Shown piece by piece: positions 1-6,067 of a stretch of DNA of 6,067 nucleotides; positions within the stretch are counted from its first letter, which is position 1, and each line of letters starts with the position of its first letter. Below the pieces are notes generated by a model. The model did no database searches. It had not been told where the DNA came from and was given only the letters and a program-made list of their open reading frames with translations. The stretch is taken from positions 1 through 6,067 of the IMG/VR virus record IMGVR_UViG_3300020030_000003; one strand, written 5' to 3'. The position numbers and the translations under genes were made by a program. The DNA comes from a virus.

Positions 1-121
1 AATCAAAATAAGACCACGACGAGACACGAGAAGAAGGGCGAGGCATATAACCAAGAAAGTCACCAACGCCAGCAGATACGAATTTTCGCGTATAACGGCG
101 ATGTTGGAGGAGGCAAGATAA
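1..121. repeat. Terminal redundancy, copy 1 (circular-contig overlap)
   Basis: A base-by-base comparison shows 1..121 is identical to 5947..6067. The repeat lies inside the Rep reading frame, which becomes continuous only when the ends are joined. Confidence 0.95.
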
Positions 122-736
122 AGGTGTAGGGTTTCCATCTACGGTAACATATTTGTCCGAAATTTCATCGGGGTTAAATTGAATTTGTTTAGTGACATAC
201 TTAACGCAGTAACGAGCGCGCTTGTGGGTTGCTTTCGCTAGCCAAACAAAACCAAGGTCTCGGACTGCAGAACGAATCGTGTTATAAAGAACATTTGTGC
301 CGAACAAAAAGCCATGAAAGTGCAACCGAGGTTCATTTCCTGTTTCGGGGTGGGTGCCAAACTCCTGGAAAAAAGCGTGTTTAAACGAATGGCCGAGTTT
401 GTGGCGTAGGCGTTCGTTGAATTTTCGAATAAACCAGGACGGATCAAGTAGAGCCTCGTTGTAATACTTCGGAGCAATCGTTATTGTAATAAAAATAGCC
501 TGCTGACTATCAGCCTTACAGCGAGCAAGCTCGCGCTCAAGACGCACGAACCAATCATTACGCTGGCGACGCAAACAGTCTTCACATTTTCCACACGGGA
601 CCATAAGCCACTGGCGAGCGATATCCCAAGGACGGAGAGCCAGGGCGGACTTAGCAATATCAGAGCCATCACGACAAGGATTCTTCTTATCAAAGTAGCG
701 CCGATTGCGTATCCATATGGGAGAAGAACAGGGCAT
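1..736 (-). CDS. VP4: Replication initiation protein (HUH rolling-circle endonuclease, Microviridae VP4/gpA-like), N-terminal 245 codons. The frame runs off the left edge and continues at 5946.
   Basis: Hand translation of the minus frame whose codon tops are congruent to 1 mod 3 gives ATG at 736..734, then MPCSSPIWIRN.... The zinc-finger-like PCGKCEDC lies at 598..575. Motif I, FITITI, lies at 493..476. The HUH motif RLHFHGFLF has its HFH at 322..314. The catalytic Tyr motif YCVKYVTK lies at 211..188. There is no stop down to position 1. The ORF is absent from the track only because it lacks an in-window stop. Confidence 0.9.
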   Translation of the reverse strand, partial: MPCSSPIWIRNRRYFDKKNPCRDGSDIAKSALALRPWDIARQWLMVPCGKCEDCLRRQRNDWFVRLERELARCKADSQQAIFITITIAPKYYNEALLDPSWFIRKFNERLRHKLGHSFKHAFFQEFGTHPETGNEPRLHFHGFLFGTNVLYNTIRSAVRDLGFVWLAKATHKRARYCVKYVTKQIQFNPDEISDKYVTVDGNPTPLSCLLQHRRYTRKFVSAGVGDFLGYMPRPSSRVSSWSYFD

Positions 737-936
737 TAGAACAAACTTTGAATGCAATCGAATTTAGCGTAAGGGTTATCACGGCGGCAACGAACAAGGT
801 ACTCGAGTGCGGGAGTTTCGTCGGAGAACCAAGCGACAATAATTCGCTTCTTACCACGATACATGCCAATGGAATAACGAAGGGGGGAATTGTTAATGAT
901 AGGGGCAAACCTAGGCCTAAAATCAATATAATCCAT
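736..936 (-). CDS. Small basic hypothetical protein (66 aa), translationally coupled to Rep
   Basis: ATG at 936..934 is preceded by an A/T-rich leader (TTGTATAAATTATTTTTTTCAACC). The product is MDYIDFRPRF...CIQSLF, with 11 Arg+Lys against 7 Asp+Glu. The stop TAA 738..736 overlaps the Rep ATG 736..734 as TAATG. The longer 98-aa version in the track needs a GTG start at 1032 and would run through GC-rich hairpins. Confidence 0.65.
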   Translation of the reverse strand: MDYIDFRPRFAPIINNSPLRYSIGMYRGKKRIIVAWFSDETPALEYLVRCRRDNPYAKFDCIQSLF

Positions 937-962
937 GGTTGAAAAAAATAATTTATACAACA

Positions 963-996
963 CGAGCCTAAGCGGGCTGCGCTGTTTCGGGCCTCG
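963..996 (-). other. GC-rich nested stem-loop in the intergenic region
   Basis: Outer stem 963-968 (cgagcc) pairs with 990-996 (ggcctcg), with one bulged c at 992. Inner stem 971-974 (agcg) pairs with 980-983 (cgct) around the loop ggctg. Confidence 0.45.
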
Positions 997-1015
997 ATCT
1001 CGCGTACGCGATATC
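996..1015. repeat. 20-nt near-perfect palindrome gatcTCGCGTACGCGAtatc
   Basis: The 12-nt core 1000..1011 (tcgcgtacgcga) is a perfect palindrome. The extension to 996..1015 has a single mismatch pair (c999/t1012). It lies about 60 nt upstream of the ORF66 start on the coding strand. Confidence 0.7.
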
Positions 1016-1078
1016 ATCGGCTCCGGAAACACTTACTCGCCGCGCTCTTAACGGCTCGAAGGATATATAGTAAAGAGA

Positions 1079-1110
1079 GGACCTGCAGGAGAAGAGTCTC
1101 CCACAGGTCC
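1079..1110 (-). terminator. Hairpin downstream of ORF107, a candidate intrinsic terminator or ssDNA structural element
   Basis: ggacctg(1079-1085) pairs with caggtcc(1104-1110), 7 bp. A 2x2 internal loop (ca/ca) follows. ggaga(1088-1092) pairs with tctcc(1097-1101), 5 bp, closing the loop agag. On the coding strand it is followed by TCTCTTTACTATATAT, which is T-rich but not a clean T-run. It starts 44 nt after the ORF107 stop. Confidence 0.4.
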
Positions 1111-1121
1111 ACTGCATCAAA

Positions 1122-1132
1122 GAACTCTTCCA
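1122..1132. repeat. 11-mer gaactcttcca shared between the two large intergenic regions (copy 1)
   Basis: Exact match to 3450..3460. Neighbouring shared modules are aaggatata (1059..1067 = 3497..3505) and agtaaag (1069..1075 = 3493..3499). ctgcaggaga at 1083..1092 is the reverse complement of 3412..3421. Confidence 0.8.
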
Positions 1133-1153
1133 CCAAGCGGGCGGGTCACAACT

Positions 1154-1477
1154 TTAGTGCCCTTTCCCTTCTTCTTTCGTCGCGCCTTCATCGTAGTTAA
1201 GATCAAAATCGAACATGAGAACTATCGTATTGTCAAAAAACTCGACGACGAAGCCAGAAAAACCTTCACAGGCAGCGATAAGGTCTGCCATTTTCGAGTG
1301 ATTGACGTAAAGAGAATCGCTAATGTCTGAACTCTCCAAAAAGCCTGCGATAGGAGTGTTTGCAACAGCGCCAAGAGGAAGCGGATCGAACTGACCATCT
1401 TTGAAACGACCTATCTGGACGAGGTCGACCTTAAGAGCCGGACTAACGCGCCGGACAACAACATGAATCTGTGTCAT
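1154..1477 (-). CDS. Hypothetical acidic protein (107 aa)
   Basis: ATG-to-TAA ORF on the gene strand, starting 11 nt after the ORF106 stop. Net charge is about -8. The C-terminus is aromatic and acidic (FVVEFFDNTIVLMFDFDLNYDEGATKEEGKGH). It is followed by the hairpin at 1079..1110. I recognise no motif. Confidence 0.72.
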   Translation of the reverse strand: MTQIHVVVRRVSPALKVDLVQIGRFKDGQFDPLPLGAVANTPIAGFLESSDISDSLYVNHSKMADLIAACEGFSGFVVEFFDNTIVLMFDFDLNYDEGATKEEGKGH

Positions 1478-1488
1478 AATAACGTGAT

Positions 1489-1809
1489 TTAAAGTTTTGT
1501 TTGAAATTCAGCACAAAAGCGTTCCCAAGCGGCAGACTGCTTGCCCCAAAATTTAGCACCTTCAGGCGTCGAATTAAACAAGAACGCAGAGGTGACGAGA
1601 TGGCTCGGGCCAAAGCCTAAATCCTGCAGAGAATGTCGAATATGGGAACGCAAGCGATCGCGAAAGCTCCTGTAGGGCGTGAAATCACGATCGTAGTTCG
1701 CTTTGAAAGCGGAAAATATCCCTCGACGAACAAGCCACTCAGTGAATGTGTACTCTAAAACGTCGACTAACAACTCATTGGTTCGGACACTTTTGCTAAA
1801 ATCTTTCAT
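1489..1809 (-). CDS. Hypothetical basic protein (106 aa)
   Basis: ATG-to-TAA ORF on the gene strand, directly downstream of the promoter-like element. It has 16 Arg+Lys against 12 Asp+Glu. The C-terminal segment is AFLFNSTPEGAKFWGKQSAAWERF, an F-x-F/W-x-x-T-P-E-G-x-x-F-W type motif that looks familiar from small phage proteins, but I cannot place it in a named family. Confidence 0.75.
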   Translation of the reverse strand: MKDFSKSVRTNELLVDVLEYTFTEWLVRRGIFSAFKANYDRDFTPYRSFRDRLRSHIRHSLQDLGFGPSHLVTSAFLFNSTPEGAKFWGKQSAAWERFCAEFQTKL

Positions 1810-1835
1810 GGTAATGTGGTTATTGGTTTACGATA

Positions 1836-1866
1836 CAAATATACGGCAAAAAGAACGAGTAACAAA
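1836..1866 (-). promoter_or_regulatory. Bacteroides-type promoter: -33 TTTG, 19-nt spacer, -7 TAnnTTTG
   Basis: The minus strand reads ACTTTGTTACTCGTTCTTTTTGCCGTATATTTGTATCG. TTTG lies at 1866->1863, the spacer at 1862->1844 (19 nt), and TATATTTG at 1843->1836. The -7 box ends 26 nt upstream of the ORF106 ATG (1809). The element sits in the 83-nt spacer after the VP2 stop. Confidence 0.55.
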
Positions 1867-1892
1867 GTTCAAAAGGTTGGAGAAATTGTTCA

Positions 1893-3149
1893 TTATTTCC
1901 CAGAATAGCTACGACGAGTATAGATACTACCATTCTTATCGCCATAGGGGCTATAAATTTCCTTCACTTCCTCATAACCTTCTGGACCAGCAGGACCTGC
2001 GGCCTTGCGACTAGCGTACGCAGCACCTGCAATACCAGCAGCGGTAGCAAAAGATCGAACAATGTCATAACCAAGGCGATTCTTAGAATTCCGCAAATCC
2101 CAGCGGGCGTTACCGGTTTCAAGCTGAGCGGTTTCGGCGGCAGCCGTATTCAGGATAGACATAGTTTCAGCAACCTTCATCATCTTCGTTTCAACAACTT
2201 CGCCTTTCTCGTTGCGTATCTGAACGGGAACTTCCTTCTCCCAGTTTAGCTCGTACCACTTCTGCAAATCCTTGAGGTTTTGAGAATTGAGCTTTATCCG
2301 GGACTCAGACTCATCAGCGGCAGAAATATTGGCAATGACAGAAGACCAGGCAACAGCGAGCGCAGCACCGGCTTGGGGCGCAAACCAATCATTAGTCTGA
2401 CGAAGATTTTGATATTTTTCCTGCAAAACACCGGCCATAGCCATAATGGAGGACATTTTATAACCTTGCGTGATATCAGATAAATAGGCGTCGATGGCGG
2501 TAATTTGAGCCTGAGCTTCATGTAAATTCGCAATCTCGCGAGCGTCCTTAACGTTATGTTGGGCAATCTGGAGTTCGAGGTTATCCATCTTTTCACGCCA
2601 CTCTTGCGTATGAGTATTACCTCGAAGATTAGCGGCCTCCGCATCGTCTCGGTTAGCGGCAGCGGTATTACGGTCAACCGTAGACTGCGCAACCATGTTT
2701 TGAGCAATAGAGGTAGGGTCAACGGGAGCGAAGCCGCCGGAAACAATCGAGGAACCGCCGGAGGGTCCGGAGGCAGAGGGCATAGACGCAGAACCGCCTG
2801 ACATAGTGGCATTTACGCCAACACCGGAAGAGCCTAAAACGGCGGCGGGGGTTACACCAGCCTTCAAATAGCGATCGAAAACCTTCGAAGGGTCATTGTA
2901 AGAGTTTTCGTAATCGAATTGTCTCTGCCAGTTAGCGTAGGATAACTCAGATTGTTTTTGCATTTGCTCTAAAGCGTACTTCTGCTGGAGAGCCATTTGT
3001 TTTTGCTGAAATTTCCACTGGCGACGAGCGCTCATGCCGCCAAAAAGTTGACCAAGCGCGCCAGAGATTAAACCGGTAGTACCGGTAGATGCGGCCGACT
3101 GACCAAGAGCTTGGCCAAAAGATGCGGCAGCAACAGCAGGAACAGGCAT
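1893..3149 (-). CDS. VP2: Minor capsid / DNA pilot protein (VP2-like, 418 aa)
   Basis: The N-terminus is Gly/Ala/Ser-rich (MPVPAVAAASFGQALGQSAASTGTTGLISGALGQLFGG). A Gln-rich coiled segment follows. The conserved VP2-type block is YENSYNDPSKVFDRYLKAGVTPAAVLG, resembling the N-x-P...R...AG-x-x-P signature of gokushovirus/alpavirus VP2. A long predicted helical central region follows. Size and position after VP1 are typical. Confidence 0.85.
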   Translation of the reverse strand: MPVPAVAAASFGQALGQSAASTGTTGLISGALGQLFGGMSARRQWKFQQKQMALQQKYALEQMQKQSELSYANWQRQFDYENSYNDPSKVFDRYLKAGVTPAAVLGSSGVGVNATMSGGSASMPSASGPSGGSSIVSGGFAPVDPTSIAQNMVAQSTVDRNTAAANRDDAEAANLRGNTHTQEWREKMDNLELQIAQHNVKDAREIANLHEAQAQITAIDAYLSDITQGYKMSSIMAMAGVLQEKYQNLRQTNDWFAPQAGAALAVAWSSVIANISAADESESRIKLNSQNLKDLQKWYELNWEKEVPVQIRNEKGEVVETKMMKVAETMSILNTAAAETAQLETGNARWDLRNSKNRLGYDIVRSFATAAGIAGAAYASRKAAGPAGPEGYEEVKEIYSPYGDKNGSIYTRRSYSGK

Positions 3150-3150
3150 A

Positions 3151-3342
3151 CTATATATGGGTTAAATTATTAGAACGAATGATGTAGTCAACACGGACTG
3201 TGTCGATATGAACGCCACTACGCTGCATCCTAGCTTGAGCTGAACAAGAAGAGAGGAAAAAGGCAGCTAACGCGGCAACAATAGACGAAACGAGTGTCCA
3301 AAAAGCCTTTGATTTATAGAAAGGTTGTTTAGCGTCTGACAT
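3151..3342 (-). CDS. Small putative lipoprotein / membrane protein (63 aa)
   Basis: The product is MSDAKQPFYKSKAFWTLVSSIVAALAAFFLSSCSAQ.... It has a Lys-rich n-region, a 17-residue hydrophobic core (F14-L30) and the lipobox L-S-S-C with Cys33 (codon 3246..3244). The stop TAG 3153..3151 is 1 nt from the VP2 ATG (3149), suggesting translational coupling. Confidence 0.7.
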   Translation of the reverse strand: MSDAKQPFYKSKAFWTLVSSIVAALAAFFLSSCSAQARMQRSGVHIDTVRVDYIIRSNNLTHI

Positions 3343-3397
3343 GGTATTGAAATCTTAGGGGGAGTTATGGCGTAAACAATTAAATAAAGAACGATAG

Positions 3398-3474
3398 AAA
3401 AATGCGCGGCCTCTCCTGCAGTCGTTACCAATAACCTCTAGGAATTCACGAACTCTTCCAAGAGGGGTCCGCGC
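3398..3474 (-). terminator. Large GC-clamped stem-loop followed by a T5 run, a candidate terminator or ssDNA structural element
   Basis: gcgcgg(3404-3409) pairs with ccgcgc(3469-3474), 6 bp. There is a 3-nt bulge at 3466-3468. cctct(3410-3414) pairs with agagg(3461-3465), 5 bp. The interior may branch, with gtta(3424-3427)/taac(3432-3435) and ggaa(3441-3444)/ttcc(3456-3459). On the coding strand the stem is followed by ATTTTT (3403->3398). It lies between the ORF98 stop and the ORF63 start. Confidence 0.4.
3450..3460. repeat. 11-mer gaactcttcca shared between the two large intergenic regions (copy 2)
   Basis: Exact match to 1122..1132. It sits inside the 3404..3474 stem-loop. Confidence 0.8.
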
Positions 3475-3505
3475 ACGTAGCATATATCGTCAAGTAAAGG
3501 ATATA

Positions 3506-3802
3506 CTATTTTTCTTCAGAATTGGAAGGCTTTGAAGTAGACTTAGCCTTATCAAGCTGAGAATCAATGAGTTCCTGTCCAACCTCGAGACCGTCGAACT
3601 TATCCATACGATAAAAGGAGTTAGGATCGAAATCGATATCAGGGTTGAACCTCTCTCCCTTCTCAAAATCGGAAGGTTCAGCGATCACATCCGGACGACC
3701 AGGAAGGACGTCGACGGAGCCAGAACCGTTAAGGACGGAAAGGATGCGCTGACCGCGAGAGACATAAGCGGGAGAATCTTCAAGTAACCAATCAAGTGCC
3801 AT
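3506..3802 (-). CDS. Hypothetical highly acidic protein (98 aa), a possible scaffolding-type protein
   Basis: ATG at 3802 lies 12 nt after the VP1 stop. The stop is TAG 3508..3506. The product is Asp/Glu-rich with aromatic-acidic repeats (DFEKGERFNPDIDFDPNSFYRMDKFDGLE). The functional call rests only on composition and position. Confidence 0.72.
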   Translation of the reverse strand: MALDWLLEDSPAYVSRGQRILSVLNGSGSVDVLPGRPDVIAEPSDFEKGERFNPDIDFDPNSFYRMDKFDGLEVGQELIDSQLDKAKSTSKPSNSEEK

Positions 3803-3814
3803 AAGATCAATATA

Positions 3815-5608
3815 TTAACGATTAGACAAACGGGTTGCAAATGTTTTATTAACCAAGTTCTTCTTCTGAACAGAATACGAAAGGTTGATGAAAAAGTTAT
3901 CTTCCGTCTTGGAGGAAAATGGGGAGTTTACCTGATCAACATCTACGAATAAAAGGGAGTAATACTGGTTATAGCTCGCCGACAAAACACGTTGTTGAAC
4001 CCAATAAGAGTAAAGAGGTGTACTAGCGGCAGAACCTTGGAACCGAGACAGCTGACCAAGAACCTCGTCATACGAAGATCGAAACTCATTAAAGCACGGT
4101 TCGTAAGCCACAGTCTCCGAGGCCGAGGTAGTTCCGAAACCAAATTGGAACCCAGGAACATCCTGATATCCAATGTCATTATAGATCGGATTAAAATAAT
4201 CAGCACCGGTGTAATGGAGGTAATCGGGATAGACGCCTGCCCAATAGTAAACGGGGCGAATACTCAACATATCAATCAGGTAGCCAGGTTCTCGAAAATA
4301 GTAAGACTGTCGACGACCTAACCGTTCGTTGAAAGCGATAGCGCCACCCTGCTGACCAAGATAAGGCGTAGGGTACCCGTTACCGTCAAAATTATTAGTG
4401 CCAGACTGATTCATAACAACCTGAACGTTAACAGTCTGCGAAGCGCTAAAAAGCAGCTTAGGCCTATCGACATGCTCAATCTTCGACGCAAAAAAGGTTT
4501 CCAACCAATCACTATAACGAGAGCCGCCAGCGCCAAGCAAGTCTTTATACTCTTGAAGCCGCGAAGCAATAGCCAACTGTGGTATAGTCGAAACACCGGA
4601 CATGGAAACACCCTCAGAACTGCCGACGGGGAGCAAGCGACTATAACGATCGGGGTTTGAAGGTATAACAGCCATCGGGTGCGAGACGAGGAACGCTCCA
4701 AGCGTAGTGACGGTGGTAGTACCAGCGTCGACAGCAAATTGATTTGCAGGACCTGCGGTAGTTAGCGAGGTACTTCCAGGATAAATAGTAGAAACGGGGT
4801 AACCATCCTTAGAGGCAGTAATCGTAGCGCCAAGGTCAGAAAGTAATATCTGGGAAAAAAGATTTCCTCTATTATACGTATTATTCGACGACGGCACAGA
4901 CGAAGGATAAAACTGGCTTTCATAATAAGCATCGAGAAACTCGAGGTTTCCGAATCTTTGCGAGAAAAACGTCGATTTGTCGCTGAACTGAGAGACATTA
5001 TACGCAGTACCAGTACTATTAGGAATGAACCACCAGCTGCCGGGCCAAGCAAAAGAGTAGAGACCCCACTGGGAATAACCATAATAATTGCGCACAATAT
5101 CCCAATAAGCAAGGTAAGAATCGGCAGTGCACCAGCCCAAAGGATATCCTAGTTGAGCAGTCGAAAGGTTCGCCGACATGGGAACGTTACTAGAGGTTGT
5201 CGCCGGGATAGAAGCAGGAATAACGCGCAACCAACGAAGCAGTGAATTAGAATAAGGGTAGTTGTTGTGGGTGAATTCGTAAGAGGCGGTTGACGCAGCA
5301 GCAACGAAATTCAAGCTCAGATTATTCATATCGAACTTACTACTATTCGTTCTCAACTCAGGATGATACAGCTGAAGCGGTACCCAAAAACGATGCAAAC
5401 GAATAGTGTAGGGATTGAACGTCGGAACAGCGAGCGGATTACTACGGACGTCAATGCCTTGCTCGATGGATACACGATCACGAGCGTTGATAAAATCGAT
5501 TCGCACCGGATACAAAATACCCGGTGTACACGTAAAAGCCTTACTCTCGGGAACGTCATATCGAGAATAGCCATTTACGGCATGCGAAATAAAAGGTTGT
5601 TTTCCCAT
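3815..5608 (-). CDS. VP1: Major capsid protein (Microviridae F/VP1 family, 597 aa)
   Basis: It is the longest ORF. The N-terminal block is RYDVPESKAFTCTPGILYPV...VRSNPLAVPTF...IRLHRFWVPLQLY, matching the F-protein pattern ...G-x-L-x-P...R-x-x-P...FFVP-x-R. Central motifs are GGSRYSDWLETFFA and DRPKLL. The C-terminal motif is YEPCFNEFRSSYDEVLG. The ATG lies 3 nt after the Rep stop. Confidence 0.93.
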   Translation of the reverse strand: MGKQPFISHAVNGYSRYDVPESKAFTCTPGILYPVRIDFINARDRVSIEQGIDVRSNPLAVPTFNPYTIRLHRFWVPLQLYHPELRTNSSKFDMNNLSLNFVAAASTASYEFTHNNYPYSNSLLRWLRVIPASIPATTSSNVPMSANLSTAQLGYPLGWCTADSYLAYWDIVRNYYGYSQWGLYSFAWPGSWWFIPNSTGTAYNVSQFSDKSTFFSQRFGNLEFLDAYYESQFYPSSVPSSNNTYNRGNLFSQILLSDLGATITASKDGYPVSTIYPGSTSLTTAGPANQFAVDAGTTTVTTLGAFLVSHPMAVIPSNPDRYSRLLPVGSSEGVSMSGVSTIPQLAIASRLQEYKDLLGAGGSRYSDWLETFFASKIEHVDRPKLLFSASQTVNVQVVMNQSGTNNFDGNGYPTPYLGQQGGAIAFNERLGRRQSYYFREPGYLIDMLSIRPVYYWAGVYPDYLHYTGADYFNPIYNDIGYQDVPGFQFGFGTTSASETVAYEPCFNEFRSSYDEVLGQLSRFQGSAASTPLYSYWVQQRVLSASYNQYYSLLFVDVDQVNSPFSSKTEDNFFINLSYSVQKKNLVNKTFATRLSNR

Positions 5609-5611
5609 AAA

Positions 5612-6067
5612 TTAAATGTTTAGTTGAAGTTTATAGTGATCTCTCCAAAACTGAAGAATATCTAAATTCAGCCAGGTAGGGGGGTCAAAATCAGGCATCT
5701 TGCGAGAAGACGCAGAAAAGCGCATCACCTGTTTTTGTTCCCACGTATACGCCTCTCTACGGGATACGGAGGAACTGAGATTGAACCGTTCAACACACAG
5801 AGACACAATACGCTTAACCAGAGGAGACTTGCTAAAACGTGAATAAGCGTCAGCAGCGGTAATCGAGCGAACAATGTCATCTTCCGGTTTAATGTATCTA
5901 AGATAATATCGAGGAATCGAGTAATTATAATTGATACGCTTCTCAAAATCAAAATAAGACCACGACGAGACACGAGAAGAAGGGCGAGGCATATAACCAA
6001 GAAAGTCACCAACGCCAGCAGATACGAATTTTCGCGTATAACGGCGATGTTGGAGGAGGCAAGATAA
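5612..6067 (-). CDS. VP4: Replication initiation protein, C-terminal part (same gene as 1..736; unique part 5612..5946, stop TAA 5614..5612)
   Basis: The track ORF 5612..5992 (MPRPSSRVSSWSYFDFEKR...) starts at an internal Met equivalent to position 46 and is in the same frame as the 1..736 frame. The frame stays open through 6067. Joined length is 736+335 = 1,071 nt, giving 356 aa plus a stop. The stop lies 3 nt before the VP1 ATG. Confidence 0.88.
   Translation of the reverse strand, partial: LSCLLQHRRYTRKFVSAGVGDFLGYMPRPSSRVSSWSYFDFEKRINYNYSIPRYYLRYIKPEDDIVRSITAADAYSRFSKSPLVKRIVSLCVERFNLSSSVSRREAYTWEQKQVMRFSASSRKMPDFDPPTWLNLDILQFWRDHYKLQLNI
5947..6067. repeat. Terminal redundancy, copy 2 (circular-contig overlap)
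   Basis: Identical to 1..121. The offset is 5,946 nt, a multiple of 3, so the reading frame is preserved across the junction. Confidence 0.95.

Follow-up and report, generated by a model that had tools for sequence, protein, structure and literature searches.

How microviruses leave their host cell, or exclude competitors from it, is essentially unknown outside the phiX174 group, in which the lysis protein E (Microvir_lysis), encoded by a frame overprinted in gene D, the external scaffolding gene, lacks a lipobox and targets MraY through its N-terminal transmembrane (TM) domain. The other described systems to be compared here are the colicin release lipoproteins (BRPs; Lysis_col), whose stable signal peptide is itself active, the spanin proteins lambda Rz1 and T1 gp11, and the T5 Llp and Cor proteins. 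We analysed a stretch of viral DNA of 6,067 nucleotides (IMG/VR record IMGVR_UViG_3300020030_000003, positions 1 to 6,067; the whole stretch is hereafter referred to as the window), with a focus on ORF63, a gene of 63 codons that directly precedes the gene for the DNA pilot protein VP2. The analysis identifies ORF63 as a true late gene in a microvirus associated with Alistipes, and its family as a previously undescribed group of predicted small lipoproteins of single-stranded DNA microviruses.

ORF63 has in common with the BRPs the size of a tiny prolipoprotein (63 aa versus about 45-52 aa, with a mature part of 31 versus about 28-35 aa), residence on a small replicon devoid of a murein hydrolase, and a strong constraint on both the signal peptide and the mature part, both of which are active in BRPs. 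It differs from them in its longer signal peptide, in its Bacteroidales rather than enterobacterial host, in the absence of any sequence similarity (Pfam, E <= 10), and in being known from sequence alone. Like Rz1 and T1 gp11, the ORF63 product is a predicted small lipoprotein of the signal peptidase II type on the periplasmic face, and the family also comprises long forms (about 195 aa) which, by virtue of an N-terminal lipobox, a long unconserved linker that overlaps another gene, a C-terminal stretch of weak hydrophobicity and a basic tail, recall both a u-spanin and the embedded Rz/Rz1 arrangement. In contrast to Rz1, ORF63 has a non-coding region upstream and VP2 downstream, no Rz-type partner, endolysin or holin cassette could be found in the genome, and the mature peptide contains neither a Pro-rich region nor an extra Cys; in contrast to the T1 gp11 u-spanin, the protein ends 30 residues past the Cys, with no second hydrophobic or TM segment. 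Likeness to T5 Llp and Cor lies in a small phage lipoprotein that is expected to face the periplasm, that adjoins the entry gene VP2 and that shows allelic variants behind a common export signal. Unlike Llp and Cor, to which no homology was detected (Pfam, NCBIfam, PHROG), ORF63 is co-translated with a late structural gene, and its conservation far exceeds that expected of a blocker specific to one receptor. Finally, ORF63 resembles phiX174 E in encoding a small membrane-targeted microvirus protein with a conserved N-terminal hydrophobic helix, but is free-standing, carries a lipobox and has no Pfam match; a second gene of the window, h00, overprinted on VP4, is closer than ORF63 to the arrangement of the phiX174 genes E and K.

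ORF63 is a protein-coding gene under very strong purifying selection

The ORF63 product starts at an ATG and consists of 63 aa (MSDAKQPFYKSKAFWTLVSSIVAALAAFFLSSCSAQARMQRSGVHIDTVRVDYIIRSNNLTHI). Exactly 63 intact codons were found at 85 related loci (84 unique nucleotide sequences), for which the pooled Nei-Gojobori estimates were 0.62 for pS and 0.08 for pN, yielding a dN/dS of 0.064 with saturated synonymous sites. The other reading frames showed dN/dS values above 1, save the antisense frame that shares third positions with ORF63. Third positions vary in 61 of the 63 codons, and 28 residues are invariant, including C33 (TGT or TGC), nearly all of them being encoded by 2 to 5 different codons. 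A chance open reading frame is ruled out by the 85 intact copies, the low dN/dS, and the combination of variable third positions with invariant residues; ORF63 is a genuine protein-coding gene under very strong purifying selection. The constraint extends over both parts of the protein, with a dN/dS of 0.049 for the hydrophobic (h-) region and 0.086 for the mature peptide. With a mean identity of 91.5%, the ORF63 product is the most conserved protein of the clade, ahead of ORF98 (84%), ORF107 (60%) and ORF106 (55%), and VP1, VP2 and VP4 are likewise less conserved.

A search of 5.8 billion proteins returned 408 homologues, the best 120 of these 408 being all at least 87% identical to ORF63, and tblastn located the gene in 38 phage records at identities down to 48%. 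The motif GVHIDTVRVDYIIRS of the mature peptide is near-invariant across hundreds of variants recovered from pig, rodent, lemur, tortoise and human samples. In the mature peptide, G43, H45, D47, T48, V49 and R56 are invariant in divergent homologues. Invariant residues of the h-region are F14, W15, L17, I21, A24, L25 and F29.

A spacer of a single nucleotide separates the stop codon of ORF63 from the start codon of VP2 in 81 of 83 related loci, the junction reading TAGTATG 65 times and TAATATG 14 times. This conserved TA[GA]-T-ATG junction fits translational coupling of the two genes, and on the same ground ORF63 would be expressed late, together with VP2. The earlier note on this DNA had described the 1-nt distance to VP2, had called the two genes coupled, and had proposed to look in related microviruses for a small syntenic ORF upstream of VP2 under purifying selection. 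The spacing was confirmed and such an ORF was indeed recovered, as described above. Coupling to VP2 holds within the lineage of the window; it does not extend to other lineages or to the Alistipes prophages, where the gene lies between VP2 and VP4 and often takes a long form of roughly 195 aa.

The ORF63 product is predicted to be a modular lipoprotein

The architecture attributed to this protein in the earlier note, namely positive residues K5, K10 and K12, a hydrophobic core, the lipobox LSSC with Cys33, and a mature part of 31 aa, was confirmed in the sequence and is conserved in the homologues. For lipoprotein prediction we used PROSITE PS51257, which combines a Met start, a K or R in the first 7 residues, a Cys at position 15-35 and the pattern {DERK}(6)-[LIVMFWSTAG](2)-[LIVMFYSTAGCQ]-[AGS]-C. 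The ORF63 product matches this rule (K5, Cys33, FLSSC), as do 204 of the 205 unique family proteins, whose lipoboxes read LSSC, LASC, LTSC and others, with S, G or A at position -1 throughout the family; several type B relatives (see below) with the lipobox LESC would fail the rule at position -2. The maximum 19-aa Kyte-Doolittle hydropathy of the protein is 1.98, at residue 13. A24 and C33 are the only residues shared by all of 19 aligned divergent members, and AF2, run on this 19-sequence alignment, modelled a confident helix over residues 12-41 and gave a pLDDT below 50 for the mature part.

Several natural variants separate the signal peptide from the mature peptide. The homologues P0162 and P0173 display an unrelated signal peptide ahead of the same mature peptide, while P0183 and P0185-P0187 display the same signal peptide ahead of unrelated mature peptides; P0205 and P0206 are reciprocal natural chimaeras with their junction at the lipobox. 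Judging from these sequences, the family is built of two modules, signal peptide and mature peptide, between which recombination takes place at the lipobox. The same pattern was encountered at the locus itself. Five relatives that apparently lacked ORF63 (MG945151, MG945453, PP511490, PQ007377 and MG945170) had been missed by tblastn and carry, at the same place before VP2, a 65-aa gene, termed type B, in which the same signal peptide is followed by an unrelated 33-aa mature peptide, C-TARHYVVQSASSIKSGDTTRTTITYEQIGNFKRP, as opposed to the type A peptide of the window; the locus has thus been lost in no genome of the clade. The peptide type was not seen to track VP1 or VP2 similarity, a comparison that is uninformative in that the type B genomes resemble one clade nested within the type A diversity.

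In Bacteroidota, the signal for lipoprotein surface export (LES) takes the form C-X-K-(D/E)2 or SDDDD (Lauber et al. 2016). In the ORF63 family, the residues following the Cys are SAQAR (type A) or TARHY, with no acidic residue at +2 to +6. Since this acidic signal is missing, the lipopeptide would be expected to face the periplasm. Taken together, the sequence features indicate that the ORF63 product is probably exported, lipidated and cleaved as a lipoprotein.

Searches of Pfam, NCBIfam, PHROG and PADLOC yielded no family match for the ORF63 family, even at permissive thresholds, with the exception of a marginal PADLOC hit; in particular, Pfam at E <= 10 returned no match, including to Lysis_col (PF02402), for the ORF63 product or for four divergent homologues. 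The marginal hit was to the candidate defence protein PDC-M02A, with E values of 0.01 for ORF63 (residues 27-63) and 0.003 for P0146; both matches cover profile positions 14-50 of 172 and may reflect only similarity in the lipobox region. One GenBank Third Party Annotation (TPA) record names the homologue P0021 'lipoprotein' by automated annotation, and the type B homologue P0193 was named 'chitin synthase regulator' by the same kind of TPA pipeline, for which reason neither name is evidence of function. Literature searches gave no description of a microvirus lipoprotein. Kirchberger et al. (2022) reported only occasional peptidase genes, as well as peptides of about 65 aa that are shared between families, most of them without a function, and explicitly omitted overprinted genes. 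Their Table S2 lists a 'hypothetical' 70-aa cluster, named after MG945151 and common to Families 3, 4 and 18 and a singleton, which is probably the same family as ORF63. The remark in the earlier note, whose author was not aware of an established lipoprotein class in Microviridae, therefore stands as regards a described lipoprotein, lysis or exclusion family, and has to be qualified by the one TPA record and by this probable Table S2 cluster.

Distribution, host range and long forms of the family

Among 1.84 billion cluster representatives scanned, 55 clusters were identified. Cellular homologues were considered and rejected, as all 55 clusters are microvirus-like except two (P0182 and P0188), which are repeat artefacts. 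A scan of a genome collection gave two matches, both to microvirus prophages in Alistipes, namely in A. montrealensis kh20 (on a scaffold of 839 kb) and in an uncultured Alistipes. The closest GenBank records of the window are faecal Microviridae of pig, civet, musk deer, rodents and lemurs, several of which (MG945730, MG945790, MG945713 and others) were classified as 'Family 18' by Kirchberger et al. (2022), with Alistipes as the host of several of them (their Table S1). On the basis of the Alistipes prophages and of this Family 18 host assignment, the host of the lineage of the window is Alistipes, a diderm member of the Bacteroidota.

In the Alistipes prophages and in bajarodmic virus 856, the gene is situated between VP2 and VP4 and not before VP2. 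In those lineages, VP1 and VP4 are only about 25-30% identical to those of the window, whereas the lipoprotein module is 50-76% identical, which argues that the module has moved between distant lineages sharing a host genus. Within the Alistipes prophages, the lipoprotein gene is the first phage gene beside host DNA, a moron-like position. A host helix-turn-helix gene, the same in each case, adjoins all of these prophages.

About 30 of the 55 clusters consist of long forms of 172-223 aa, in which the N-terminal module is followed by some 110 unconserved Ser/Leu/Pro-rich residues, a weakly hydrophobic stretch with an invariant Pro (borderline 19-aa Kyte-Doolittle values of 0.85-1.84), and a basic tail with the conserved sequence RRGGRRGxPRPxxKxIPLGGSHL. 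The unconserved residues overlap a conserved ORF in an alternative frame ('ORF-X', 118-140 aa), across which the lipoprotein frame runs on without a stop. ORF63 is the minimal form of the family and is devoid of this tail. The basic tail is reminiscent of a DNA-binding peptide of the J kind or of a C-terminal anchor's cytoplasmic tail.

An overprinted gene within VP4 is a second lysis candidate

The coding strand was scanned for hydrophobic ORFs, each of which was then tested in the relatives. This led to h00, which encodes 119 aa from an ATG start, with two hydrophobic segments. Of 83 relatives, 79 keep at least 90% of the h00 frame open. Synonymous diversity in VP4 drops from about 0.45-0.55 to 0.12-0.19 over codons about 190-315; within the h00 overlap, VP4 pS falls from 0.68 to 0.24 and VP4 dN/dS rises from 0.035 to 0.36. 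The dN/dS of the h00 frame is 0.73 in the overlap, versus 2.68 for the same frame outside it, and h00 was intact in 55 of 56 cases. The gene is kept, with a conserved PPYP motif, in divergent relatives that include type B genomes and a Poophage. Only five proteins matched h00 in the databases, none of them named. By these measures, the h00/VP4 pair looks like genuine dual coding, and h00 appears as a candidate membrane or lysis protein of the E/K kind, at least as good a lysis candidate as ORF63. The argument by elimination of the earlier note, which had pointed to the lack of any ORF large enough for a hydrolase in proposing ORF63 as a candidate lysis or superinfection-exclusion factor, fails in the presence of this overprinted gene.

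Genome organization and the upstream non-coding region

The window ends in an exact direct repeat of 121 nt (1-121 = 5947-6067), an assembly overlap of a circular contig, so that the true circle measures 5946 nt. All genes of this circular gut microvirus genome lie on the minus strand (Table 1). VP4 looks split or frameshifted in the raw window and is an intact ORF once the genome is circularised. ORF106 and ORF107 are kept as open frames in most relatives and diverge fast; they gave no family match except two weak PHROG hits of unknown function.

Table 1. Coordinates of ORF63, of its parts and of the other features of the window, together with related genes at other loci
Feature	Position	Strand	Remarks
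ORF63, prolipoprotein gene, 63 codons + TAG stop	3151..3342	-	intact in 85 loci, dN/dS 0.064
Predicted signal peptide, residues 1-32	3247..3342	-	n-region K5/K10/K12, h-region A13-S32
Lipobox L30-S31-S32-C33	3244..3255	-	Cys33 codon 3244-3246, TGT
Mature 31-aa peptide CSAQARMQRSGVHIDTVRVDYIIRSNNLTHI, type A	3154..3246	-	core motif G-V-H-I-D-T-V-R-V-D-Y-I-I-R-S
Stop-start junction TAG-T-ATG, ORF63/VP2	3147..3153	-	stop 3151-3153, spacer base 3150, VP2 ATG 3147-3149
VP2, DNA pilot protein, directly downstream of ORF63	1893..3149	-	PHROG 8689 'pilot protein for DNA ejection', E=7e-6; annotated VP2 in relatives
ORF107 and ORF106 (respectively), downstream of VP2	1154-1477 and 1489-1809	-	
Non-coding region	3505..3343	-	between ORF98 and ORF63
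Long imperfect hairpin GTGCGCGG...CCGCGCAT	about 3403-3476	-	followed by T-run at about 3396-3402; a few compensatory pairs
ORF98	3802..3506	-	
VP1	5608..3815	-	Pfam Phage_F and PHROG major head protein matches
VP4	736..1 then 5946..5612	-	356 aa once circularised
h00, 5' part, 46 codons, inside VP4	1..138	-	continues at 5946 on circular genome
h00, 3' part	5725..5946	-	+1 frame of VP4 codons 200-319
Type B allele, before VP2 (other loci)	L155 3749-3946; L156 3507-3704; L157 2428-2625; L158 2560-2757; L159 4511-4708		
Prophage long forms, about 192-202 aa (other loci)	L088 7977-8585; L090 3490-4083; L091-L093, L100, L125, L126		

In the region between ORF98 and ORF63 (3343-3505), most alignment columns are at least 95% identical across 77 loci, while the third positions of ORF63 are saturated, and at the nucleotide level this region is more conserved than its flanking genes. 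The earlier note had given ORF63 a structured intergenic region of its own; the region exists, but it is better read as the main conserved non-coding region of the genome than as a leader private to ORF63. A role as terminator, origin or both is a guess. The fold energy of the region compared with shuffled sequences gave z-scores that were not significant, Rfam returned no match in the flanking region, and a consensus scan for terminators and promoters revealed nothing beyond expectation. The conserved ACTTGACGATATAT located upstream may loosely recall the core of the phiX174 origin. In at least 8 relatives (L008, L010, L014, L015 and others), an extra GC-rich insert of about 95 nt, which folds as a strong hairpin (about -33 to -36 kcal/mol), is present just ahead of ORF63, after the long hairpin; in the window, a shorter version occupies about 3343-3395.

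An apparent 'ORF42' (3355-3483) falls inside this non-coding region, and its fusion to ORF63 by gene callers generates database entries of 100 aa. This 100-aa version, starting at MLRARTP in the output of many gene callers, was rejected on three grounds: the window and roughly 40% of the relatives have an in-frame stop no more than 4 codons before the ATG, the upstream sequence shows nucleotide-level conservation and compensatory pairs, and M1 never varies.

Possible roles of the ORF63 product

In the mechanism that we propose, the ORF63 precursor would be exported by Sec, Lgt would add a diacylglyceryl group at Cys33, and signal peptidase II would cut to release a 31-aa lipopeptide, three steps that are together likely. 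Having no acidic surface-export signal, the lipopeptide would stay on the periplasmic side of the inner or the outer membrane, where it would engage a conserved component of the host envelope and contribute to envelope failure at virus release. Its action would be like that of a BRP or of an outer-membrane lysis component and not like that of phiX174 E, and it may involve the conserved signal peptide, h00, or both. This contribution to envelope disruption at release is the role that we favour, if only tentatively, because the locus is never lost, no hydrolase is encoded (family searches detected no peptidoglycan hydrolase in the genome), and the constraint on two modules recalls the colicin release lipoproteins. 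Moreover, near-invariance across animal hosts and across lineages with unrelated capsids makes a conserved essential target likelier than a hypervariable receptor.

Several points weigh against lipoprotein processing or against a part in lysis. The helix modelled by AF2 runs on through the lipobox, and no fold was obtained for the mature part. The predicted signal peptide is long, with its Cys at 33 after an h-region of 20 residues, near the upper limit of the PROSITE rule, and a host Alistipes lipoprotein encoded in L093 has its Cys at 17. The Glu at lipobox position -2 (LESC) in many type B relatives is atypical. As for lysis, known single-gene lysis proteins are usually poorly conserved, unlike ORF63, and no sequence match to the BRP, Rz1 or E families was obtained. 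The existence of at least two unrelated mature-peptide alleles (A and B) would suit a receptor or exclusion role equally well, and h00 could be the lysis protein by itself.

The exclusion role just mentioned, in which a periplasm-facing lipopeptide would bind the periplasmic face of an outer-membrane receptor or another entry factor, and thereby shield lysogens or prevent phage from adsorbing again to debris, vesicles and infected cells, is possible but doubtful. A small phage lipoprotein without a surface-export signal, with interchangeable mature peptides (A, B and others) behind one export signal, exchanged horizontally among distant lineages that infect the same host genus, and found next to the pilot gene VP2 or, in Alistipes, at a moron-like prophage edge, is what such a role would lead one to expect, and h00 could then fill the lysis function. 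Nevertheless, a dN/dS of 0.06 across varied animal hosts and unrelated VP1 proteins is not what one would expect if the partner were one of the Bacteroidales surface structures, which are hypervariable and phase-variable, and the peptide type does not follow VP1 or VP2 similarity, as far as that comparison is informative. In the window, furthermore, the gene is co-translated with a structural gene and not set up as an independently expressed lysogenic gene, and, bar the marginal PDC-M02A hit, there is no homology to Llp, Cor or the PADLOC models. The alternative that the protein is not processed at all, and serves as a signal-anchored membrane protein of the E or holin kind whose helix is the functional part, with the Cys used for another purpose, e.g., a disulfide, appears unlikely. 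The 20-residue h-region is as constrained as the mature part and contains seven invariant residues, AF2 models one continuous helix over residues 12-41, many type B lipoboxes have Glu at -2, and in phiX174 E the TM domain is active while the C-terminus can be replaced. What speaks for processing instead is that a Cys after S, G or A persists in proteins in which the whole signal peptide (P0162, P0173) or the whole mature part (P0183-P0187, type B) has been replaced, with recombination junctions exactly at the lipobox; in addition, the mature peptide is itself strongly conserved, and the basic N-terminus orients the protein N-in, as in a signal peptide. Least likely of all, and in our view improbable, is a helper of VP2 in morphogenesis or entry, which would not itself be toxic or excluding and would, for example, help the pilot protein to insert into the membrane or organise assembly there. 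The conserved stop-start coupling to VP2 in the lineage of the window would agree with such a helper, and the Arg-rich tail of the long forms recalls the DNA-binding protein J, but the gene is not beside VP2 in other lineages, an exported lipopeptide would be on the wrong side of the membrane for cytoplasmic assembly, and the ORF63 product is devoid of the Arg-rich tail.

Returning to envelope disruption at release, a more specific version, which is speculative and rather unlikely to hold, is that Alistipes microviruses use a conserved cassette of signal peptide and lipobox to deliver interchangeable lipopeptides of about 30 aa (types A, B and others) into the periplasm. The target inhibited there would be an envelope machine that is itself conserved, for instance the one for lipoprotein trafficking, for outer-membrane biogenesis or for a cell-wall synthesis step on the periplasmic side.

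Significance for microviruses of Bacteroidales

Overall, the ORF63 family is a concrete candidate for an envelope effector in a group of abundant gut viruses, the microviruses of Alistipes and other Bacteroidales, and ORF63 is, with h00, one of the two lysis candidates in this genome. The ORF63 module is exchanged across lineages that are otherwise reported to swap genes rarely. Should the target of the lipopeptide prove to be both conserved and essential, a new weak point in the envelope of Bacteroidales would be indicated. If the cassette reading were true, these lipopeptides would represent a new class among the single-gene lysis effectors of the 'protein antibiotic' type, one that is anchored by lipid and is exchanged among microvirus families that in other respects are genetically isolated from one another.

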